Shown one piece after another: positions 3 through 57,061 of a stretch of DNA of 64,000 nucleotides. Source of the stretch: Anaerolineae bacterium (GTDB lineage Bacteria; Chloroflexota; Anaerolineae; B4-G1; DUEL01); NCBI GenBank assembly GCA_041082215.1, contig JBDOIF010000058.1:1406-65405 (forward strand). Reading direction: 5' to 3'. A model generated the notes under the pieces. That model had not been told where the DNA came from. It was given only the letters and a program-made list of their open reading frames with translations, and ran no database searches. Within the stretch, counting starts at the first letter, position 1, and every line of letters starts with the position of its first letter. The translations under genes were made by a program, and so were the position numbers.

Positions 3-1430
3 GTGACTCCCTTCACGAAGGATGGGGCGTTCGACGAGGCTGCCTACCGGGCGCTCATTCGCTATGTCCTGCCCCACGTGAACGGGGTGGTCCCCTGCGG
101 GACCACAGGCGAGTTTTCTTATATGAGCATCGAGGAACGCAAGCGGGTCATCGGGGTCTGCCTGGATGAGGTGGGGGGACGGGTGCCGGTGGTGGCCGGG
201 ACCGGCTGCCCCTCCACCCGCGACACGCTGGCCCTCACCGAGTGGGCCCGCGACGCCGGGGCGACCGGCGTGCTGGTCGTCGCCCCCTACTATCTCAAAC
301 CCTCTTTCAACGAGGTGTATGACCACTACCGGGCGCTGGACGGGCTGGGCGTCCCCCTGGTCCTTTATAACATCCCCCAGTGTGCCGGCACCCACTTCCG
401 CTGGTGGACGGCCGAGGGGATGCTCCTCGATTTCGACAACGTGGTGGGCATCAAGGACTCCTCCGGCGACCTGCCTTTTATGGAGGCCCTCTTCGAAAAG
501 GTCAAGGGCCGGGTGGGGATCTTCGTCGGCCACGACGAGGTGGTGCAGGCGGCGCTGGCCGCTGGCGCCGACGGGGCGATTCTGGCCTCGGCCAATCTGA
601 TCCCCGACATCTGGCAGATGGTCTATCGGGCCACCCTGGAGAGGGACCTGGAGACGGCGCAGATGTGGCAGCAGAAGGTGCAGAAGCTGGTGCGCATCGT
701 CGTACAGTGCAGCTCCACCCAGGCGGTCAAGGAAGGGTTGCGGATGATGGGGCTGCTGGTGGGCGACTCCCGCCATCCGATCATGCCCGGCGGCGGCTTC
801 CGGCGGGAGGACTACGAGGAGATGCGGCTCCAGCTTGAGGACCTGGGCAAGCTCCGGGATGCGGAGGTAGTGTACGACCTGGGAAGCAGGCAGGTGCACA
901 CCTGCGTCCCCGCCACGCCGGATACCCCGTCCGTGGTGGCTGGCTGGACCCTGCGGGTGGGCGAGGGGTTCGCCGGGCCGCCCTTCCAGGAAATTGCCCA
1001 CGTGGACCTGTTGCTGGGCCGCCGGGACGGGCCGGTGGGCCGCGCGGTGGAGCGGGCGCTGGCCGGTTGGGGCCAGGAGCGGGGGCTGAAGGTGATCTGC
1101 GAGCGCCCGTTGACGTTATTGGTCCCCACGGTGACCATCCGCACCGCCAGGCAGCGCCGCCTCTTTTACGAACACGCCGCGGAGGGGATCAGCCTGGCGG
1201 TCCGCAAGAACGTCGAGAGCGGCTACCTGCCGGAGGAGGCGCTGGACGAGCTGGTGCTGATCGTTAACGCCTTCGTCCATCCGGCGGCCTCCATCGCCAA
1301 ACGGGTGGCCCTCAACAACTACAAGGCGATGATGCAGGCGGTGCGCAAGGCCATCGAGGGGCGGCCCACCCTGGCGCAACTCTTCAACGAGAAGGCCGCC
1401 GCCCGCCATCCGTTCCGGTACGCGCCGTAG
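3..1430 (+). CDS. Class I aldolase (DapA / N-acetylneuraminate lyase family) fused to a C-terminal Fae-like (formaldehyde-activating enzyme) domain. The 5' end is cut off by the window edge.
   Basis: N-terminal half carries DapA-family motifs (GTTGEF, YNIPQCAG). C-terminal about 170 aa aligns with Fae: EIAHVDLLLGRRDGP..., LTLLVPTVTI, ELVLIVNAFVHP, NNYKAMMQAVRKAI, ARHPF. The ORF runs from the window edge with no start codon. Confidence 0.7.
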   Translation: MTPFTKDGAFDEAAYRALIRYVLPHVNGVVPCGTTGEFSYMSIEERKRVIGVCLDEVGGRVPVVAGTGCPSTRDTLALTEWARDAGATGVLVVAPYYLKPSFNEVYDHYRALDGLGVPLVLYNIPQCAGTHFRWWTAEGMLLDFDNVVGIKDSSGDLPFMEALFEKVKGRVGIFVGHDEVVQAALAAGADGAILASANLIPDIWQMVYRATLERDLETAQMWQQKVQKLVRIVVQCSSTQAVKEGLRMMGLLVGDSRHPIMPGGGFRREDYEEMRLQLEDLGKLRDAEVVYDLGSRQVHTCVPATPDTPSVVAGWTLRVGEGFAGPPFQEIAHVDLLLGRRDGPVGRAVERALAGWGQERGLKVICERPLTLLVPTVTIRTARQRRLFYEHAAEGISLAVRKNVESGYLPEEALDELVLIVNAFVHPAASIAKRVALNNYKAMMQAVRKAIEGRPTLAQLFNEKAAARHPFRYAP

Positions 1431-1477: not shown

Positions 1478-2188
1478 CTAGGGTTGCGGTGAGACCGACC
1501 CGGCGATCCGGACGAGGGTTTCCACAGTGATCTGAGGAGAGCCGGAGGCGAATTCATACACCACTTCTCTGGATCTCCAGTAAAGGACGGGCCATGCCCT
1601 GGGTTCCCATTGATGGTTAATCCACTTCCCGTAGACCACTGCGGCCGGCTGGCCGTTTACCTTCACCTCCTCGACGACGGCGTCGGGAGGGATCACCGGC
1701 CCCTGCCCTTCTTGGGCCGGGCAAAAGATGAACATCGTCAGAGGAGTCTCGCCGTAGGCGTTGCTCCACATAAGGATCGCCGTGGCGGCTTCGTCGGTGT
1801 AGCGGTCCACCTGCACCGACCGCAACTCCAGCCCTTCCGGCAGCCATTCCGGGAGCGCCAGTTCGCAGGGGAACGCAGCCCGCGCCTCCTCCAGGCTGAC
1901 CGGCGGGATGAGCCGGATTTCGGGCTTTGTCGGACGGGGCAGGCTTTCGGCTTCATAGAACCAGATGCCGCCGATGATGCGGATGCCCTGAGCGACCGCT
2001 TCCCGGACGGAGGGGAAGCACAGAAGGGCAAGGGCGAAAACCACAGCAAGGCCGGTCAGGCCCAGGGCGACCCGCCGGCGCAGTGGGGGTCTCTTCGGCT
2101 CCTGGCGGATCCGCTCGTACAGCGCCTCGGCGAACTCCGGCCGCGGCGGCTGGCGAAGCCGGTACAGGAATTCATCACTCATCGGCAA
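1478..2188 (-). CDS. Membrane-anchored anti-sigma factor (single transmembrane segment; extracytoplasmic DUF4367-like domain).
   Basis: Overlaps the 3' end of the ECF sigma gene by 14 nt (translational coupling). Has a short cytoplasmic N-terminus, one hydrophobic segment (LGLTGLAVVFALALLCF) and a C-terminal extracytoplasmic domain. Confidence 0.5.
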   Translation of the reverse strand: MPMSDEFLYRLRQPPRPEFAEALYERIRQEPKRPPLRRRVALGLTGLAVVFALALLCFPSVREAVAQGIRIIGGIWFYEAESLPRPTKPEIRLIPPVSLEEARAAFPCELALPEWLPEGLELRSVQVDRYTDEAATAILMWSNAYGETPLTMFIFCPAQEGQGPVIPPDAVVEEVKVNGQPAAVVYGKWINHQWEPRAWPVLYWRSREVVYEFASGSPQITVETLVRIAGSVSPQP

Positions 2189-2717
2189 CCTCCTCCCATT
2201 CGGAGCGCAGTCTGCAGACCACGCGGTACAGGATGGTCCCCACGTTGGACTCGCTCAGGCCGGTCAGCCGTGCGATGGCCCGGTTGGTCAGCCCCGCGCC
2301 GTACTTGAGGGCGATCAACTCCTGCTCGCGGGCGGGCAGCCGGGCGATGAGCGATCGGAGGCGACCGGCGTCGTTCCCCCGTTGAACCACCTCTTCGACC
2401 GAGCAGGGGTCAGGCATGCCAGATAGCTCCTCCAGCGGGACCTCCTGAGAGTGGCAGCGGAAGTGGTCTATGGCTACGTTGCGGGCGATGGTGAACAGCC
2501 AGGTGGAGAAAGCCCCCCGGTCATTTCGAAACCGCTTCCGGCTGCGCCACGCCTTCTCGAAGGTCGCCGCTGTAAGGTCCTCCGCCACCGGCCCATCCCC
2601 CACCCGGTAACGAAAGAAGTTGTACACACGGGGCAGCAGGTCGGCATATGCGGCTTCCCAGTCTACTGCCTCGGGTCGGGCATCTTTGTGGATGGACTGG
2701 CCTGTTCTTTTATTCAT
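2175..2717 (-). CDS. ECF-type RNA polymerase sigma-70 factor (sigma-24 family).
   Basis: Region 2 (FEKAWRSRKRFRNDRGAFSTWLFTIARNVAIDHFR) and region 4 helix-turn-helix (LIALKYGAGLTNRAIARLTGLSESNVGTILYR) motifs; about 180 aa. Confidence 0.85.
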   Translation of the reverse strand: MNKRTGQSIHKDARPEAVDWEAAYADLLPRVYNFFRYRVGDGPVAEDLTAATFEKAWRSRKRFRNDRGAFSTWLFTIARNVAIDHFRCHSQEVPLEELSGMPDPCSVEEVVQRGNDAGRLRSLIARLPAREQELIALKYGAGLTNRAIARLTGLSESNVGTILYRVVCRLRSEWEEVADE

Positions 2718-48527: not shown

Positions 48528-51500
48528 ATGCAGACATCGGGTTGGGGCAGTAAGTCCTACGCTCGTATGGCAGGCTCTTTGAGCTTGCCGACATTGATCG
48601 AAGTCCAGCTGGAATCCTATCGCTGGTTCCAGGAACAGGGGCTGAGAGAGCTCTTCGATGAAATCTCGCCTATCGAGAGCTACACCGGCACCCTTCGTCT
48701 CCATTTCCCCAGCTTCAGGCCGGAGAGCGCCCAGTTGGGGCTGAAGTACCGCTTCGGCGAACCCACTTACAGCCAGGAAGAGTGCCTGGAGCGGGATGTC
48801 ACCTACGCCGCGCCCCTCTTCGTCGAGGTCGCGCTGGAAAACCGGGAGACAGACGAGATCATCAAGTCGGAGATCTTCCTGGGCGACTTCCCGCTGATGA
48901 CCGAGAACGGTACTTTCATCATCAACGGGACGGAGCGGGTGGTGGTCAGCCAGTTGATCCGCTCCCCCGGCGTCTATTTTGACGTCGAGGAGGACCGGGC
49001 CACCGGCCGGCGGCTCTGTATGGCCAAGCTGATCCCGGACCGGGGCGCCTGGATGGAGTTTGAGACCCGCAAGACCGGCTATCTTACCCTCAAATTCAAC
49101 CGGAAGCGCACGGTCCCGGTCACGATCATCCTCCGGGCCCTGGCCGCGGTGGACGATGGGACGGGGTCAGATGTCCTCACCCAGGGGACAGACGAGGAGC
49201 TGCTGGAGCTGTTCGCCGATGTGGATGTGCTCCCTGAGGTCCAGTGGATCCCTACCACCATCCGCCAGGAACCCAATTGGGAGCCGGAGGAGGGGCGGAC
49301 CATCGCTCAGGAAGCGTTGCTTGAGTTCTATCGCCGCATGCGGCCGGGTGACCCGCCCACGCTGGAGAATGCCAGGGAATTCCTCACCTCTCAGCTCTTC
49401 GATGAACGGCGGTACGACCTGCAGCGGGTGGGGCGGTACAAGCTGAACCAGCGGCTGGGGCTGAATCTGCCGCCCGATTGGCGGACGGTGACCAAAAGGG
49501 ACATCGTCGCGCTGGTCCAGCATATGATCCGCATCAACAACGGGATCGAGGACGCCGACGACGTAGACCACCTGGGCAACCGGCGGGTTAAGACGGTCGG
49601 CGAGCTGATCCAGAGCAAGTTCCGCGTCGGCCTCCTGCGTATGGAGCGGGTGGTCAAAGAGCGAATGTCCCTCCGAAGCGAGACGGAGTCCCCCACACCG
49701 GTCAATCTGATCAACATCCGCCCTGTGGTCGCCGCTATGCGGGAGTTCTTCGGCTCCAGCCAGCTTTCCCAGTTTATGGACCAGACCAACCCGCTGGCGG
49801 AGCTGACCCACAAGCGAACCCTCTCCGCCCTCGGGCCCGGGGGGTTGCGAAGGGAGCGGGCCGGCTTCGAGGTCCGCGATGTCCACCACTCCCACTATGG
49901 CCGTATCTGCCCCATCGAGACCCCCGAGGGACCCAACATCGGCCTCATCGGCCGTCTGGCTACCTACGCCCGGGTGAATGACCTGGGCTTCATCGAGACC
50001 CCCTACCGCCGGGTGATCCGCTCCGTGCCCCCTACGGTGGAAGCCCTGACCGGGAAGACGCTGCGGGAACCGGTGGTGGACCCCGAAAGCGGGGAGGTGG
50101 TGGCCGAGGCGGGGGCCGAGGTCACTCCCGAACTGGCCGAGCGGATCGCGGCTCTGAACCTCCCCGATGAGGTGCCCATCCGCCCTCAGGTGACGGACGA
50201 GATCGTTTACCTTTCCGCAGACAGGGAAGAGCACTATACCGTCGCTCAGGCCAATGCCCGGCTGGACGAGAAGGGCCACTTCGTCCATCCCCGCATCTCC
50301 GCCCGAAGGGGGGAGGAGTTCCTGCTCACCTCTCCGGAGCAGGTAGATTTCATTGACGTGGCCCCCTGCCAGGTCGTGGGCGTCTCGGCTGCCCTGATCC
50401 CCTTCCTGGAGCACGACGACGCCAACCGGGCTCTGATGGGCTCCAATATGCAGCGGCAGGCGGTCCCCCTGATCCAGCCGGAGGCTCCCCTGGTAGCCAC
50501 AGGGATCGAGCGGCAGGCGGCGGTTGACTCCGGTCAGGTGATCCTGGCCGAGGCCGACGGCGAAGTGGTCAGCGTCACCGGCGACCGGATCGTGGTGCTG
50601 GAGGAGAACGGCCGCAAGCGGGCCTACTCCCTCCGCAAATACGACCGCTCCAACCAGTCCACCTGCATTGACCAGCGGCCGACGGTCTACAAGGGGCAAA
50701 AGGTAAGAAAGGGAGACGTGCTGGCGGATAGCTCTTCCACCTGCGGGGGGGAGCTGGCCCTGGGCCATAACGTCCTCTGCGCCTTTCTCTCCTGGGAGGG
50801 CGGGAACTTCGAGGATGCGATCCTGATCAGCGAGAGCCTTATCCGGGAGGACAAGTTCACCTCCGTCCACATCGAAAAGCACGAGGCGGAAGCAAGGGAT
50901 ACCAAGCTCGGACCGGAGGAGATCACGCGGGATATCCCCAACGTGGGGGATGAGGCTTTGAAGGACCTGGACGAGGACGGGATCATCCGCATCGGCGCAG
51001 AGGTCGGCCCCTCCGACATCCTGGTGGGCAAGATCACCCCTAAGGGAGAAAAGGAGCTGACGCCGGAGGAGAAGCTGCTGCGGGCCATCTTTGGGGAGAA
51101 AGCGCGGGAGGTGAAGGATTCCAGCCTCCGTATGCCCCACGGCGAACGGGGTAAGGTCGTGGATGTGAGGATCTTCGACCGGGAGGAGTATCAGGACCTG
51201 CCCACCGGTGTCGAGCGGATGGTGCGGGTGAGCGTGGCACAACGGCGCAAGATCACCGAAGGGGATAAGATGGCCGGCCGCCACGGTAACAAGGGGGTCA
51301 TCTCCCAGGTGGTGCCGATCGAGGATATGCCGTTCCTGAAAGACGGCACGCCGATCGAGCTGATCCTGAACCCCCTGGGGGTGCCGGGCCGGATGAACAT
51401 CGGGCAGGTGCTGGAAACCCATCTGGGGTGGACGGCCAGTCGGCTGGGGCTTCAGGCGATCAGCCCTGTCTTCGACGGCGCGACGGAGGACCAGATCGCC

Positions 51501-52454
51501 GCCGAGCTGGCCCGCGCCTGGCTGATTGACCGGGCCTGGAAGGAGATCACGGAACGGGCCTGGGCCTGGCTGAAGGCCCAGGATTACCCGCTGGAGACCC
51601 TCACCGATGACGATGAAGCCCGTCTGCTGTACATCGTCGCCTGGCTGGCCAATCGGGGGTATGACGAGGGGCAACTGGTGGAGAACGTCGTCTACGCCCG
51701 CCGTTCCGTCCTGCGGGAATGGCTGAAAGAGCGGGGGTATGACCCCGATGAGCTTCTCTCCTTTGAGGACGACACCCGGTCGCTGGTCGAGCGGGAGGAG
51801 GCGGACCGGGCCGCCCGGGTGGCCTGCCTGCGGATCTGGCTGGAGGACCGGGGACGGGATACGGCGGCCCTGAAGGACGAGGAGGTGGAGCTGCTGGCGA
51901 CCGAGGTGAGCCTGGAGCTGAAGGACCCATTGCCGACGCTGGGAAAGGCGATCCTCTACGATGGGAAGACCGGTGAGCCCTTCGACCAGCCAGTGACGGT
52001 GGGGATGATCTATATGATGAAGCTGGCCCACATGGTCGAAGATAAGGTGCACGCCCGTTCCACCGGCCCCTACAGCCTGGTCACTCAGCAGCCGCTGGGC
52101 GGGAAGGCCCAGTTCGGCGGGCAGCGGTTCGGCGAGATGGAGGTGTGGGCGCTGGAAGCCTACGGGGCGGCCTACACCCTGCAGGAAATGCTCACCATCA
52201 AGTCGGACGACGTGCAGGGGCGGGTGCAGGCCTATGAGTCCATCGTCAAAGGGGAGCCGATCGGCGAGTCCGGTGTGCCTGCCTCCTTTAAGGTGCTGGT
52301 CAAAGAGCTCCAGAGCCTCGGCCTGGCGGTGGAAGCGGTGACGGAGAGCGGCGAGGTCCTCCACTTCGGCCGGGAGGAGAGCCGCTTCCGCGTCCCCCGT
52401 CTGGCTATGGGGTTGCTGGGACTGGGAGATCGCAAGAGTGGCCCATTTGACTAA
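48528..52454 (+). CDS. rpoB: DNA-directed RNA polymerase beta subunit.
   Basis: Canonical rpoB blocks throughout (e.g. [69 protein letters not shown]). Compared with E. coli, the dispensable region near residues 1000-1130 is about 60 aa longer. Confidence 0.97.
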
Positions 52455-52606
52455 ATTCCGCTCTTGTGTTAAAATATCTGTTCGTTGGGAGGGCGACAGC
52501 CATATCTCCTGTCGCCTGGTTGACAGAGTAGCTTTTGGACATGGGGAGAAGGAGGCCATCGAAAGGGTGGATGGCCTTCTTCGCTGACGCATCTGGGGGG
52601 AGTAGC

Positions 52607-53026
52607 GTGCCTACGATCAACCAGTTAGTACATAAGGGGAGAAAACCGAAGCGGAGGAAGACAAAGGCTCCGGCGTTGCAGTTTGTCTTCAACTCCTACC
52701 GGCAGCGGCGGTACCGGGAGCCTAAAGGGGCCCCGCAAAAACGGGGGGTCTGTACCCAGGTCCGCACGATGACGCCGAAGAAGCCGAACTCCGCCCTGCG
52801 GAAGATCGCCCGCGTGCGGCTGACCAACGGCATTGAGGTCACTGCCTATATTCCGGGTGAGGGGCACAACCTGCAGGAGCACTCGGTGGTGCTGGTGCGC
52901 GGTGGCCGCGTGAAGGACCTGCCCGGTGTCCGCTATCACATCATCCGCGGCGCGCTGGATGCCGCAGGAGTTGATGGCCGTGTCCAGCAGCGGTCCAAGT
53001 ATGGCACCAAGCTGGGCAAGAAGTAG
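52607..53026 (+). CDS. rpsL: 30S ribosomal protein S12.
   Basis: GTG start, then PTINQLV...[59 protein letters not shown]. The ORF track extends to an upstream ATG at 52535. Confidence 0.9.
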
Positions 53027-53039
53027 GGGGTAGGGAAGC

Positions 53040-53510
53040 ATGCCCAGACGGTATCGTCCACCCAGAAGGTCAGTTGAGCCAGACCTGCGGTACAACAGCG
53101 AAATGGTCGCCCGGTTCATCAACAAGGTGATGAGGGACGGCAAGAAGAGCCTCGCAGCCCACATCGTCTACCGGGCGATGGATATCGTCGAGGAGCGGGC
53201 GAAGCGGCCTGCGCTGGAGGTCTTCGAGGAGGCGATTCGGAACGTCTCCCCGGTGCTGGAGGTGAAGCCCCGCCGTGTGGGAGGTTCCACATATCAGATT
53301 CCGGTGGAAGTGCCACCCCATCGGCAGGCCAGCCTGGCGATGCGTTGGATCCTGACGGCAGCCCGCCAGCGACCCGGCCTTTCGATGGCAGAAAAGCTGG
53401 CTGCCGAGTTGATTGACGCGGCCAATCGGACCGGGGCGGCGGTTAAGAAACGGGAAGATACGCACAGGATGGCGGAAGCCAACCGGGCGTTTGCCCATTA
53501 CCGGTGGTAG
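53040..53510 (+). CDS. rpsG: 30S ribosomal protein S7.
   Basis: [10 protein letters not shown]...[23 protein letters not shown]. Confidence 0.95.
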
Positions 53511-53581
53511 TACGCAACACGCAATACGCAACACGTGCCTTGTGTTTCGTGTTGCGTGCTCCATAAGCGGTGTGGCGGGCG
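53511..53581. repeat. Inverted / direct repeat spacer between rpsG and fusA: 2x acgcaacacg plus the complement cgtgttgcgt.
   Basis: tagtacgcaacacgcaatacgcaacacgtgccttgtgtttcgtgttgcgtgctcc. The same 11-mer tacgcaacacg occurs at 62634-62644 in the rplN-rplX spacer. Confidence 0.5.
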
Positions 53582-55660
53582 ATGAGCAGTGCACACTCTC
53601 TGGAGCGCGTTCGCAATATCGGCATCATCGCCCACATTGACGCCGGAAAGACGACGACCACCGAGCGGGTGCTCTTTTACACAGGTAGAACCCATCGGAT
53701 GGGGACGGTTGACGAAGGGACAACCGTCACCGACTGGATGGTCCAGGAAAAGGAGCGGGGGATCACTATCACCGCTGCGGCGGTGACCTGCTTCTGGCGG
53801 GACCATCAGATTAACATCGTGGATACACCGGGGCACATTGATTTCACCGCCGAGGTCCAGCGCAGCCTGCGAGTCCTCGACGGCGGAGTCGTGGTCTTCG
53901 ACGCTGTAGCGGGAGTCGAGCCGCAGTCGGAAACGGTCTGGCGACAGGCTCGCTCCTTCGGCGTGCCCCTGATCGCGTTCGTTAACAAAATGGATAAGCT
54001 GGGCGCCGACTTCGCCCACGCGGTGGGGACAATCCGCGAACGGCTGGGTGCCAACCCTGTGATGGTCCAGTGGCCCATCGGCCGGGAGTCCTCCTTCCGG
54101 GGAGTGGTGGACCTCCTGGAGATGCATGCGGTGGTGTGGGTGGACGAGCTGGGGAAGTTGCCTCAGATCGAGCCGATCCCCCCCGAACTGCTCGACGAGG
54201 TAATGGAGGTCCGGGAACAGACGCTGGAGCAGATCGTCGAGCTGGACGACGAGCTGACCCTCCGCTACCTGGAAGGGGAAGAGATCGCGGCAGCGGAGCT
54301 GAGACGGGTTCTGCGGGTAGCCACCTTGAAGGGGGAGCTGACTCCCGTGCTCTGCGGCTCGGCGCTGCGGAACAAGGGGGTACAGCCCCTGCTGGATGCC
54401 ATCGTGGATTACCTGCCCTCCCCGCTGGACATCCCACCGGTGGAGGGGGAGAACCCCTACACGGGAAAGGTGGAGACCCGTCCGGCCGATATGAATGCGC
54501 CGCTGGCGGCCCTGGCTTTTAAGGTGGCCAGCGATCCCTATGTGGGCCGCCTGGTCTATCTGCGGATCTACTCCGGCAAGCTCAAAGTCGGCAGCACTGT
54601 CTACAACCCTGGGCGGGAGCGAAAGGAGCGGATCGGCAAGCTCCTGCGTATGTTCGCCCGCGACCGGGAGGAGGTGCCGGAGCTTGCGGCGGGGGACATC
54701 GGGGCGGTGGTGGGGTTGAAGCACACCTTCACCGGCGATACGCTCTGCGTACCCACTGCCCCTATCGTCCTTGAGTCCATCCGCTTTCCGGAGCCGGTCA
54801 TCTTCGTCGCCATCGAGCCGAAGACGGCCGCCGACCAGGACCGGATGAGCGAGGCGCTGCAGCGGCTGGCCGAAGAGGACCCCACTTTCGTGGTCCGCAC
54901 CGATGAGAACACCGGGCAGACCATCCTCTCGGGGATGGGGGAGCTCCATCTGGAGATTCTGGTGGACCGGCTGGTGCGGGAGTTCCACGTGGAGGGGCGG
55001 GTCAGTCGCCCGCGGGTGGCCTACCGGGAGACGGTCACTGCCTGGGCGGAGGCGGAGGGGCTCTTCGACCGGCTGGCAGGCGGCAAGCCCCAGTATGCCC
55101 GGCTACGGCTGGCAGTGGAGCCGCAGCCTCCGGGAGAGGGGTTCCGCTTCGAGGACAGGACCGGGGAGAAGGATTTCCCCCCAGCATTCCTGCGGGCAGT
55201 GGAGGAAGGCTGCCGCGAGGGGATGGAGAGCGGGGTCCTGGCTGGCTATCCGCTGACAGATGTGGGGGTTATGCTCCTGGAAGTGGAGTGGGATCGGGAG
55301 CTCTCCTCCGAACTGGCCTTTAAGGTGGCCGGTTCGATGGCCTTCCGGGAGGCGGTGGAGCGGGCGGAGCCGGTGCTTCTGGAGCCGGTGATGCGGGTCG
55401 AGGTAGTGGTGCCGGAGCCTTTCACCGGCGAGGTGGTGGGGGATCTGAACGCGCGGGGGGCGAGTATTGAGTCCCTGGGGGCCCGCCCAGGAGGTTTCCA
55501 GGTGGTGCGGGCTTCAGTCCCCCTGGCAAGGATGTTCGGCTACGCCACCGACATTCGGTCCCTTACCCAGGGGCGCGGAACCTTTACGATGGAATTCCAC
55601 CATTACGCGCCGGTGGATAAGGAGAGGATGGACGCTATTATCTATGGCGGTGCCTGGTAG
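53582..55660 (+). CDS. fusA: Elongation factor G.
   Basis: [44 protein letters not shown]. Start chosen at [14 protein letters not shown]; the ORF track starts 12 nt earlier. Confidence 0.95.
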
Positions 55661-55702
55661 AAAACGCTCTCGGCGTCGGGAGTTGTTCTCCAGAGCCTTT
55701 TT

Positions 55703-55740
55703 GGGCCGGAGGATGACTCCGGCCCGTAGTTTGTCTGTGA
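55703..55740 (+). terminator. Hairpin plus U-rich tract after fusA (attenuator or weak terminator).
   Basis: gggccggag-gatga-ctccggccc followed by gtagtttgtctgt. Confidence 0.35.
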
Positions 55741-55843
55741 GAACGCTAGATTGGTGAGGCTGTGCCTTCGTGGTGGAAAAACAGAAAGGCATAAATCCTG
55801 TTAGGGAAACGAATCGTTTGCAAATCTGAAAGGAGAGAGGAGA

Positions 55844-57061
55844 ATGGCCAAGCCAAAATTCGTACGGGAAAAGCCGCATGTCAACGTCGGGACCATCGGT
55901 CACATTGACCACGGCAAGACGACATTGACCGCGGCCATCACAAAGGTGCTCGCCCTCAAGGGGATGGCGCAGTATCAGTCCTACGATCAGGTGGCAAAGG
56001 CGGACGCCAAGATGTTCCGCCGGGATGCGACCAAGATCCTGACCGTCGCTATTGCCCACGTGGAATATGAGACGGAAAAGCGACACTACGCCCACGTGGA
56101 CTGCCCGGGCCACCGGGACTACATCAAGAACATGATCACCGGTGCGGCCCAGATGGACGGGGCGATCCTGGTCGTTTCCGCTGCCGACGGCCCGATGCCT
56201 CAGACGCGGGAGCACGTGCTGCTGGCCCGGCAGGTGAACGTCCCGGCGATCGTGGTCTTCCTGAACAAGGTGGACCTGATGCCGGATGAGGAGCTGCTGG
56301 AGCTGGTCGAGCTGGAGCTGCGGGAGCTGCTGGACTCCTACGGCTTCCCCGGGGACGAGACGCCGATCGTGCGGGGCTCTGCCCTTCAGGCGCTCCAGTC
56401 GGATAGCACCAATCCCGACGCGCCGGAGTACCAGCCCATCTGGGAGCTGATGCGGGTGGTGGATGAGTACATCCCCACGCCGGTGCGGGAGGAGGATAAG
56501 CCGTTCCTGATGCCCGTCGAGGATGTCTTCAGCATCAAGGGACGGGGCACGGTGGTGACCGGCCGCGTCGAGCGAGGCACGCTCGTCCCGATGACCGAGG
56601 TGGAGATCGTTGGCCTCCGCGACCAGTCGATCAAGACCGTCGTCACCGATATGGAGATGTTCCGCAAGAAGCTGGATAAGGTGGTGGCGGGCGACAACGC
56701 CGGCCTGCTCCTGCGGGGTGTCGGGCGGGAGGAGGTGGCCCGCGGGATGGTGGTGGCCAAGCCCGGCTCGATCACGCCCCACAAGGAGTTCGAGGCCGAG
56801 GTGTACGTGCTCCGCAAGGAGGAGGGCGGCCGCCACAAGGCCTTCTTCTCCGGCTATCGGCCGCAGTTCTATATCCGCACCACCGACGTCACGGGCGAGA
56901 TCCGGCTGCCCGAGGGTGTCGAGATGGTCATGCCGGGCGACAGCGTCAACCTGCGGGTGAAGCTGATCGAGCCGGTGGCCCTGGAGCAGGGCTCCCGCTT
57001 CGCCATCCGCGAGGGCGGCCTCACCGTCGGCGCCGGCGTGATCACCAAGATTCTGGACTAG
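55844..57061 (+). CDS. tuf: Elongation factor Tu.
   Basis: [28 protein letters not shown], full three-domain length (405 aa). Switch I is atypical; see findings. Confidence 0.93.

Follow-up and report, generated by a model that had tools for sequence, protein, structure and literature searches.

What reaction is catalysed by a protein in which a pyruvate-type aldolase and a formaldehyde-handling domain share one polypeptide? The question is raised by the first gene of a 64,000-nucleotide stretch of DNA from an Anaerolineae bacterium (Chloroflexota; contig JBDOIF010000058.1 of GenBank assembly GCA_041082215.1, positions 1,406 to 65,405), which is referred to below as the window. An initial annotation, made from the sequence alone, had described this gene as a fusion of a DapA-family class I aldolase (dihydrodipicolinate synthase family, DHDPS) with a formaldehyde-activating enzyme (Fae) domain, a description that is borne out here. 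In most bacterial loci genes of this type form the downstream member, B, of a tandem pair whose upstream member, A, is a paralogue, and A and B keep complementary sets of Fae active-site residues. No earlier description could be found of A and B as a pair, of the division of active-site residues between them, of the family's occurrence in both bacteria and archaea or of the orphan partner families F1 and F2. The fusion itself is already catalogued by domain databases and annotated as DapA, in our view wrongly.

The DHDPS-Fae fusion

Window positions 3 to 1430 on the plus strand form a single open frame of 475 codons, followed by a stop at 1428 to 1430. An identical public protein (P0001, from a 76.9-kb NCBI contig) is 490 amino acids long, so the window gene misses its first 15 codons; these lie outside the window, as the initial annotation had supposed of the N-terminus. 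The features of the gene, with residues in full-length numbering, are the following.

3 to 1430, plus strand: 3' 1428 nucleotides of the B-type DHDPS-Fae gene, residues 16-490 of 490 plus the stop codon
3 to 788, plus strand: DHDPS/NAL-family class I aldolase domain, a TIM barrel (Pfam PF00701 and Foldseek)
99 to 113, plus strand: GTTGE, with the carboxylate-binding Thr-Thr pair, Thr49/Thr50 (motif reading)
366 to 389, plus strand: YNIPQCAG (YNIP at 366 to 377), with the catalytic Tyr137 and with Cys142 at the position of E. coli DapA Arg138
402 to 407, plus strand: Trp149-Trp150 (alignment of family members)
447 to 467, plus strand: GIKDSSG, with the codon of the Schiff-base Lys166 at 453 to 455
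789 to 956, plus strand: inter-domain segment (AlphaFold2 model)
957 to 1427, plus strand: Fae-family domain, beginning at VGEGFAG (Pfam PF08714; PDB 1Y5Y)
999 to 1001, plus strand: codon of His348, which corresponds to His22 of Fae, the proposed acid catalyst, within AHVDLL (996 to 1013)
1167 to 1184, plus strand: YEHAAE, degenerate counterpart of FGPAQ (Gly85-Pro86-Ala87-Gln88; alignment to 1Y5Y)
1272 to 1283, plus strand: FVHP motif (motif reading)
1401 to 1427, plus strand: C-terminal arm ARHPFRYAP, which B and the single-gene forms have and A lacks

Both domains are recognised over nearly their whole length by Pfam: PF00701 covers residues 1-262 of the window protein (E 4.2e-68, profile positions 10-273 of 289) and PF08714 residues 319-471 (E 2.1e-30, profile positions 1-158 of 159). 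The motifs quoted in the initial annotation (GTTGE, YNIP, EIAHVDLLLG, VTI, FVHP, HPF) are each found in the protein. An AlphaFold2 model, built with 50 homologues in the alignment, has a mean predicted local distance difference test (pLDDT) of 87 and a predicted template-modelling score of 0.87, and Foldseek aligns the aldolase half of the model to solved DHDPS-family structures with a template-modelling (TM) score of 0.94 normalised to the target, at about 28-35 % identity. Because the whole-protein fold search is dominated by the aldolase half, the assignment of the Fae fold relies on sequence matches; searched by itself, the C-terminal domain hits the Fae structure of Methylorubrum extorquens (1Y5Y) with E 3.7e-18. 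The inter-domain segment is modelled with one helix and two beta-strands and, apart from a dip in confidence at residues 276-278, is not predicted to be a floppy linker. The 120 best-matching homologue clusters, at 71-100 % identity and drawn from NCBI, JGI, ENA and Logan assemblies, carry both domains without exception, mostly in proteins of 489-500 amino acids.

Paired paralogues with complementary Fae residues

The loci compared comprise 35 from species-representative genomes, 80 from metagenomes and several more obtained by exact look-up. In most of the bacterial ones an A gene (~475 amino acids) directly precedes a window-type B gene (~490 amino acids) on the same strand, and of the 50 B-type loci whose sequence reaches far enough upstream for A to be assessed, 44 have it. 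On four archaeal contigs (L040, L042, L044, L046) A and B either adjoin directly or share 4 bp. A and B proteins are about 38 % identical. Bacterial and archaeal A proteins are generally closer to one another than to their own B, the same being true of B, and forms encoded by a single gene are about equidistant from the two; these relationships would fit a single old duplication behind A and B, the archaeal pairs L044 and L046 being ambiguous. Since the window begins inside B, its own A gene is beyond view; the closest relatives of the window gene (L002-L004, 89-90 % identity) carry one.

Genes were classed by order alone, as upstream member of a pair (A, n=45), downstream member (B, n=45) or single (n=28, with at least 1.7 kb of flank required on each side), and the Fae columns were read from the alignment to 1Y5Y. 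His22 is found in 45/45 B and 26/28 single proteins and in 2/45 A proteins, where Gln takes its place in 32. The C-terminal arm is distributed in a similar way (B 45/45, single 26/28, A 3/45). The reverse holds for the turn formed by Gly85 (A 45/45, B 2/45) and Pro86 (43/45 and 0/45), for Gln88 (45/45 and 3/45) and for the full 17-residue loop at positions 47-63, which is intact in every A protein and in none of the 45 B proteins, 33 of which have 11 residues there. Among single proteins these four elements are present in 23, 22, 22 and 22 of the 28, respectively. Asp24 is widely kept (A 37/45, B 45/45, single 28/28). Every Fae element is retained in 22 of the 28 single genes, which come from Bathyarchaeia- and Lokiarchaeota-type contigs; the remaining six are B-like, and at least one of them (L029) has an A gene that dropped from the tally.

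The window protein follows the B pattern, with AHVDLL, with YEHAAE replacing FGPAQ and with ARHPFRYAP; its 47-63 loop has 11 residues instead of 17, whereas the A partner keeps the full loop and Gly-Pro-x-Gln88. The full Fae domain claimed by the initial annotation is thus a domain of full length that has kept the acid-catalyst His, from which Gly85-Pro86-x-Gln88 has gone and in which the 47-63 loop is shortened. In Fae itself, methylene-tetrahydromethanopterin (methylene-H4MPT) reportedly occupies a cleft formed by two neighbouring subunits; the acid catalyst proposed there is said to be His22, and binding is said to rigidify the C-terminal arm and to flip Gln88. The division seen here would be expected had B retained one face of this cleft (His22 and the arm) and A the opposite face (Gln88, the Gly-Pro turn and the loop), and the pattern suggests a composite Fae site at an A/B interface. 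Such complementary decay in two paralogues would make a clear case of inter-subunit active-site subfunctionalisation. Conservation of the Fae domain is also seen in the 29 of 64 invariant positions that it supplies across bacterial and archaeal B and single-gene sequences, among them VGE, AH.DL, GP, FVHP, NN and RHP.

Catalytic residues of the aldolase domain

The class I catalytic residues are present in the window protein (Lys166, Tyr137 and Thr49/Thr50), in agreement with the Schiff-base aldolase of the initial annotation. Throughout the family the Schiff-base Lys (A 44/45, B 44/45, single 28/28) and Tyr137 (45/45, 44/45 and 28/28) are kept, as is the Thr-Thr pair, with at most 3 exceptions in any class (in B, Thr50 in 44/45 and Thr49 in 42/45). 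Two further pocket residues stand out: Arg272, kept in 117/118 members, and Trp149, found in 45/45 B and 26/28 single proteins and replaced by Arg in 41/45 A proteins. In E. coli DapA, Arg138 binds aspartate semialdehyde; at the corresponding position 0/118 family members have Arg, the residues seen being Cys, Val, Thr, Ala, Leu and Tyr.

One archaeal pair departs from this picture. In L042 (6544-9449, plus strand, GCA_003560875.1), Lys, Thr-Thr and Tyr are lost from both paralogues and the Fae motifs are kept. Judged by these residues, the pair looks like a natural "aldolase-dead" version in which the barrel would be only structural.

Distribution of the family

Searched against 1.84 billion representative proteins, the Fae domain retrieves only 265 clusters at E <= 0.001, and its nearest full-length matches are all 467-500 amino acids long, with the match at the C-terminus. 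According to source names, the carriers are Anaerolineae, Thermoflexia, Caldilineae and other metagenome-assembled genomes of Chloroflexota, together with Thermodesulfobacteriota and, among the archaea, Lokiarchaeota/Promethearchaeota, Korarchaeota/Thermoproteota and Bathyarchaeia. The archaeal single-gene forms reach 193-223 bits on the NCBIfam Fae model (cutoff 118) and 232.6-245.6 bits on the dapA model, and by the first of these scores they look like true Fae. That they pass both cutoffs may explain why public names read either DapA or Fae.

A separate group of Fae-family proteins of 279-288 amino acids (P0135, P0139, P0166, P0168, P0185, P0232) has an N-terminal extension of about 120 amino acids; P0145, P0146 and P0226 were also pointed to beside it. 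Its members are annotated by JGI as Fae or tetrahydromethanopterin hydro-lyase.

Gene neighbours and two orphan families

Two protein families recur beside the DHDPS-Fae genes: F1 (~430 amino acids) in 27 loci and F2 (~316 amino acids) in 21 loci. One or the other lies at most 4 kb away in all 19 single-gene loci with enough flank (F1 in 16, F2 in 3). Examples are:

L037, 8674 to 9966, plus strand: F1
L082, 6493 to 7785, minus strand: F1
L032, 7034 to 8422, plus strand: F1
L021, 3498 to 4448, plus strand: F2
L130, 7001 to 7951, plus strand: F2
L127, 7001 to 7939, plus strand: F2

F1 stands next to the single DHDPS-Fae gene in Bathyarchaeia- and Lokiarchaeota-type loci, with a mean column identity of 70 %. 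It has at least 8,000 homologues, mostly from Bathyarchaeia, which are called "hypothetical protein" or, in some cases, misnamed "DNA-binding phage protein". F2 has 2,639 homologues, all named "hypothetical", and its Chloroflexota and Bathyarchaeia versions share 62-64 % identity; its gene mostly stands immediately before the DHDPS-Fae genes, including the A-B pair in several Chloroflexota loci, and occurs alone in L133. Neither family has a credible match in Pfam or NCBIfam, nor, even with profiles, among PDB sequences (best E 0.56-0.71). The model of F2 (pLDDT 81) is an eight-stranded TIM barrel with a generic likeness (TM ~0.5) to class II fructose-bisphosphate/tagatose-bisphosphate aldolases, ketose 3-epimerases and methylisocitrate lyase. 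F1 and F2 give a weak match to each other in hhalign (probability 58 %, E 1e-4). Two candidate relationships were rejected: F2 shows no relationship to a xylose-isomerase-like barrel encoded nearby, and an open reading frame (ORF) upstream of the gene in Lokiarchaeota, considered as a decayed A paralogue, has no similarity to A and belongs to F1.

The remaining context consists of themes none of which is both strong enough and widespread enough across lineages to carry weight. Recurring neighbours are MttB (four times), AdoHcyase (three to five times), CN_hydrolase, MR_MLE and GH57 (three times each) and ATP-sulfurylase (twice). ThrC, a Beta_elim_lyase of the threonine-aldolase type, a GHMP kinase and RibD_C with MtnA/B-like genes occur at one locus each, and a link to homoserine or threonine is a lead only. 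An enolase-superfamily protein, with galactonate dehydratase as its best match at a score below the cutoff, directly follows B in three Thermodesulfobacteriota-type loci. In L130 and L132 the unit is flanked by TAL_FSA, a class II aldolase, an FGGY kinase and AFOR.

Several lineage-specific arrangements were also noted around the pair. In the Thermodesulfobacteriota-type loci L024, L028 and L034 its neighbours are non-Pyl MttB-family methyltransferase genes (one or two), an MR_MLE gene and adenylate kinase, and L024 and L034 additionally carry stand-alone DHDPS-family genes; the region may be a catabolic island for quaternary amines or acid sugars. A 64-amino-acid, Cys-rich DUF6485 ORF (CTCTYEPCPRKGICCEC...) lies between A and B in about nine loci (L055, L057, L061, L062, L065, L066, L109, L110, L132), with a further example at L130:9505-9699 on the plus strand; it does not occur in the window. 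In close relatives of the window gene (L001/L014:1-8557; upstream in L002-L006) the A-B pair is directly downstream of glycogen/alpha-glucan genes, namely GH57 enzymes including a branching enzyme, GDE_C, DUF4912 and starch synthase, an adjacency that may reflect lineage synteny and not a functional link.

A proposed function and its alternatives

The most economical reading of the fusion would be a hand-over of formaldehyde from aldol cleavage to a pterin. In its specific form, which we put forward tentatively and with a confidence that stops somewhat short of even, the enzyme would be a lyase resembling the fusion of Fae with 3-hexulose-6-phosphate synthase (Fae-Hps): it would interconvert a 4-hydroxy-2-oxo acid with pyruvate and formaldehyde and pass the one-carbon (C1) unit to or from a tetrahydropterin. 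The window gene would encode the B subunit of this two-subunit (A+B) bifunctional enzyme, with a DHDPS-type aldolase in the place of Hps. The aldolase Lys would form a Schiff base with the 2-oxo group of pyruvate or of the 4-hydroxy-2-oxo acid, and the C3-C4 bond of a C4-unsubstituted 4-hydroxy-2-oxo acid, most simply 4-hydroxy-2-oxobutanoate, would then be made or broken. This part of the proposal stems from the conserved class I residues, the loss of the Arg that handles a large aldehyde in DapA and the near-invariant Trp nearby; with no substituent on C4, the aldehyde partner would be formaldehyde. At the Fae domains, formaldehyde would react with N5/N10 of a tetrahydropterin, yielding its 5,10-methylene form, or would be set free when the reaction runs the other way, the carrier in archaeal members presumably being H4MPT. 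In the paired form the Fae site would be composite, with His22 and the arm contributed by B and with Gln88, the Gly-Pro turn and the 47-63 loop contributed by A. F1/F2 or, in some bacteria, the enolase-superfamily dehydratase-like protein would probably supply or consume the oxo acid.

A number of observations weigh against this proposal. The window protein scores 113.6 bits on the NCBIfam Fae equivalog-domain model, slightly under the cutoff of 118.05. An alternating A/B arrangement does not fit the canonical Fae homopentamer, and Chloroflexota are not known to make H4MPT. The analysis identified no formaldehyde-linked substrate. The gene context is variable, with no Pfam family in more than four members among 126 flanking proteins; the 64-kb window holds no homologue of F1 or F2, and the downstream window genes (an ECF sigma factor, a DUF4367 protein, TatC, a sugar transferase and rhamnose genes) are unrelated and uninformative. 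Finally, the loss of the aldolase residues in L042 implies that coupling of aldolase and Fae is not obligatory everywhere.

This last observation also leads to the alternative that fares best, although we consider it unlikely: a heteromeric Fae would be the functional core and the DHDPS barrel mainly a scaffold, with the formaldehyde made elsewhere, for example by an Hps-like enzyme or by F1/F2. The protein would then act as the formaldehyde-activating enzyme of its organism, its barrel doing no more than bringing the Fae domains of A and B together. Besides L042, where both paralogues lost the aldolase residues and kept the Fae motifs, such a division is favoured by the disproportionate share of invariant positions in the Fae domain (29/64), by the archaeal single-gene forms that score as bona fide Fae and by the possibility that F1/F2 is itself a formaldehyde-producing lyase. 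A mere scaffold is difficult to reconcile, however, with the retention of Lys, Tyr137 and Thr-Thr in all sampled lineages but L042, with few scattered Thr substitutions, and with the high conservation of the pocket residues Trp149 (B 45/45, single 26/28) and Arg272 (117/118).

Also unlikely is the converse, in which the Fae-like domain is a non-catalytic module for oligomerisation or regulation and the protein an ordinary 2-keto-3-deoxy-acid aldolase of the KDG/YagE/HOGA type, releasing an aldehyde other than formaldehyde, for example glycolaldehyde, glyoxylate or glyceraldehyde. The DHDPS family is rich in such aldolases, and both the acid-sugar-dehydratase-like enolase-superfamily gene after B in three loci and the sugar-metabolism genes (TAL_FSA, class II aldolase, FGGY kinase, AFOR) at L130 and L132 would suit one. 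Yet His, Asp24, Gln88, the Gly-Pro turn and the arm are all retained and divided precisely between A and B, which argues for a working ligand site instead of a structural module, and the Fae equivalog model gives the single-gene forms 193-223 bits.

Very improbable is a genuine 4-hydroxy-tetrahydrodipicolinate synthase (DapA) that serves lysine and diaminopimelate synthesis and carries an extra domain. Many members are so named by JGI and NCBI, dapA is the best NCBIfam match of the window protein and the archaeal single-gene forms pass the dapA cutoff (232.6-245.6 versus 206.15 bits). The window protein, by contrast, stays below the TIGR00674 dapA cutoff with 179 bits (203 for the A paralogue) and reaches the cutoff of no characterised NCBIfam subfamily (equivalog); the Arg138 position is never Arg in the 118 members, so "DapA" is a mis-annotation. 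No lysine-pathway gene was found among the ten adjacent window genes scanned and no lysine-pathway family among the 25 most frequent families in related loci, and travelling as a pair of paralogues is not a DapA trait. The low score and the missing Arg led us to reject DapA identity.

The initial annotation had named a chimeric assembly as one finding that would overturn the fusion, and this artefact, like read-through of two separate genes, has practically no chance of being the explanation, since independent assemblies of four data sources share the architecture in the best 120 clusters (mostly 489-500 amino acids), and it recurs in about 130 fetched loci as well.

A wider proposal can be made, which we regard as possible though doubtful: DHDPS-Fae, as a single gene or as the A+B pair, together with the orphan F1/F2 would constitute an unrecognised short pathway between pyruvate and pterin-bound C1 in abundant lineages of anaerobic sediments (Bathyarchaeia, Lokiarchaeota, Anaerolineae), its paired form having a split heteromeric Fae site. 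Two versions can be envisaged. In the first, a natural 4-hydroxy-2-oxobutanoate aldolase route would exchange formaldehyde with the methyl branch of the Wood-Ljungdahl pathway and, if real, would be the natural counterpart of a step of the engineered "homoserine cycle". In the second, C4 acid sugars would be catabolised to pyruvate and methylene-pterin.

The rest of the window

Convergent with the DHDPS-Fae gene is a block on the minus strand (1478-2717), preceded by a promoter-like site; two plus-strand gene runs lie further on:

1478 to 2188, minus strand: DUF4367 gene
2175 to 2717, minus strand: ECF-type (extracytoplasmic function) sigma factor, overlapping the DUF4367 gene
2754 to 2726, minus strand: promoter-like site, near-consensus (11/12 matches)
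4806 to 40500, plus strand: long same-strand run of cell-envelope polysaccharide genes
48528 to 57061, plus strand: rpoB (1,308 amino acids), two small ORFs, then fusA and tuf

The polysaccharide run includes a sugar transferase, a B12-binding-domain protein, dTDP-rhamnose genes, an apiosidase-like protein and a Wzt-type ABC ATPase, as well as a Wzy_C ligase and asparagine-synthase-like, heparinase II/III-like and BNR/sortilin-repeat proteins. Judged by ORF sizes only, the interval between rpoB and fusA contains no ORF of rpoC length. A scan of the window returned no tRNA and no Rfam match.

Comparison with known systems

Fae is, to our knowledge, the only enzyme family that loads free formaldehyde onto a pterin, and the one understood context that we know of for Fae outside methylotrophs is Fae-Hps in pentose synthesis. 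The family described here adds a second fusion partner, a pyruvate-type aldolase, and this fusion is maintained in bacteria as well as in archaea, Bathyarchaeia and Lokiarchaeota among them. The initial annotation knew of no characterised enzyme with this architecture, and full-text literature searches found no paper describing a DHDPS-Fae fusion. Since automated pipelines label the family DapA or Fae, metabolic reconstructions could inherit the error, and the DapA annotation of these genes should not serve to infer lysine biosynthesis. Should the proposed lyase be real, its reaction would connect C3 with C1 metabolism in the dominant organisms of anoxic sediments, and it would be a natural enzyme for the condensation of pyruvate with formaldehyde, for which synthetic methylotrophy now uses promiscuous aldolases.

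If the enzyme runs in the synthetic direction, its functional analogues would be ketopantoate hydroxymethyltransferase (PanB) and serine hydroxymethyltransferase, which are not homologues. PanB moves a C1 unit at the formaldehyde level from methylene-pterin onto an oxo-acid carbanion/enamine. Both fold and chemistry set these enzymes apart: a Schiff-base enamine and a separate Fae site are proposed here, as against a metal enolate or pyridoxal phosphate.

With the DapA/DHDPS/NAL family (NanA, KDG aldolase, YagE/YjhH, HOGA1) the window protein shares the TIM barrel, the Schiff-base Lys, the Tyr and the Thr-Thr pair; unlike DapA, it lacks Arg at the aspartate-semialdehyde site and scores under the dapA cutoff. 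With the Fae of M. extorquens (1Y5Y/1Y60; TIGR03126) it aligns over the full length at about 30 % identity and has in common His22, Asp24, VHP and the C-terminal HPF arm. It differs in the loss of Gly85-Pro86-x-Gln88, the shortened 47-63 loop and the score of 113.6 versus 118.05, and in being fused and paired, whereas Fae is a free homopentamer.

The nearest parallel is Fae-Hps, known from methanogens and further archaea, where Fae and a lyase that releases formaldehyde form one protein. Common to both are a Fae domain with the N-terminal motifs VGE...AH(I/V)DL...GP and, as proposed here, a C-C lyase that releases formaldehyde, a toxic aldehyde which would be trapped on a pterin. In contrast to Fae-Hps, the partner in the window protein is a Schiff-base aldolase of the DHDPS type and not an Hps of the orotidine-monophosphate-decarboxylase fold, Fae occupies the C-terminal instead of the N-terminal position, and the family is divided into two paralogues with complementary Fae residues. 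The Fae-Hps model NF009833 gives 79 bits against a cutoff of 274, through its Fae part only (profile positions 2-161 of 392). The window protein thus fits the definition of neither DapA nor Fae-Hps nor, taken alone, a complete Fae: it is a Fae fusion with a different lyase partner.

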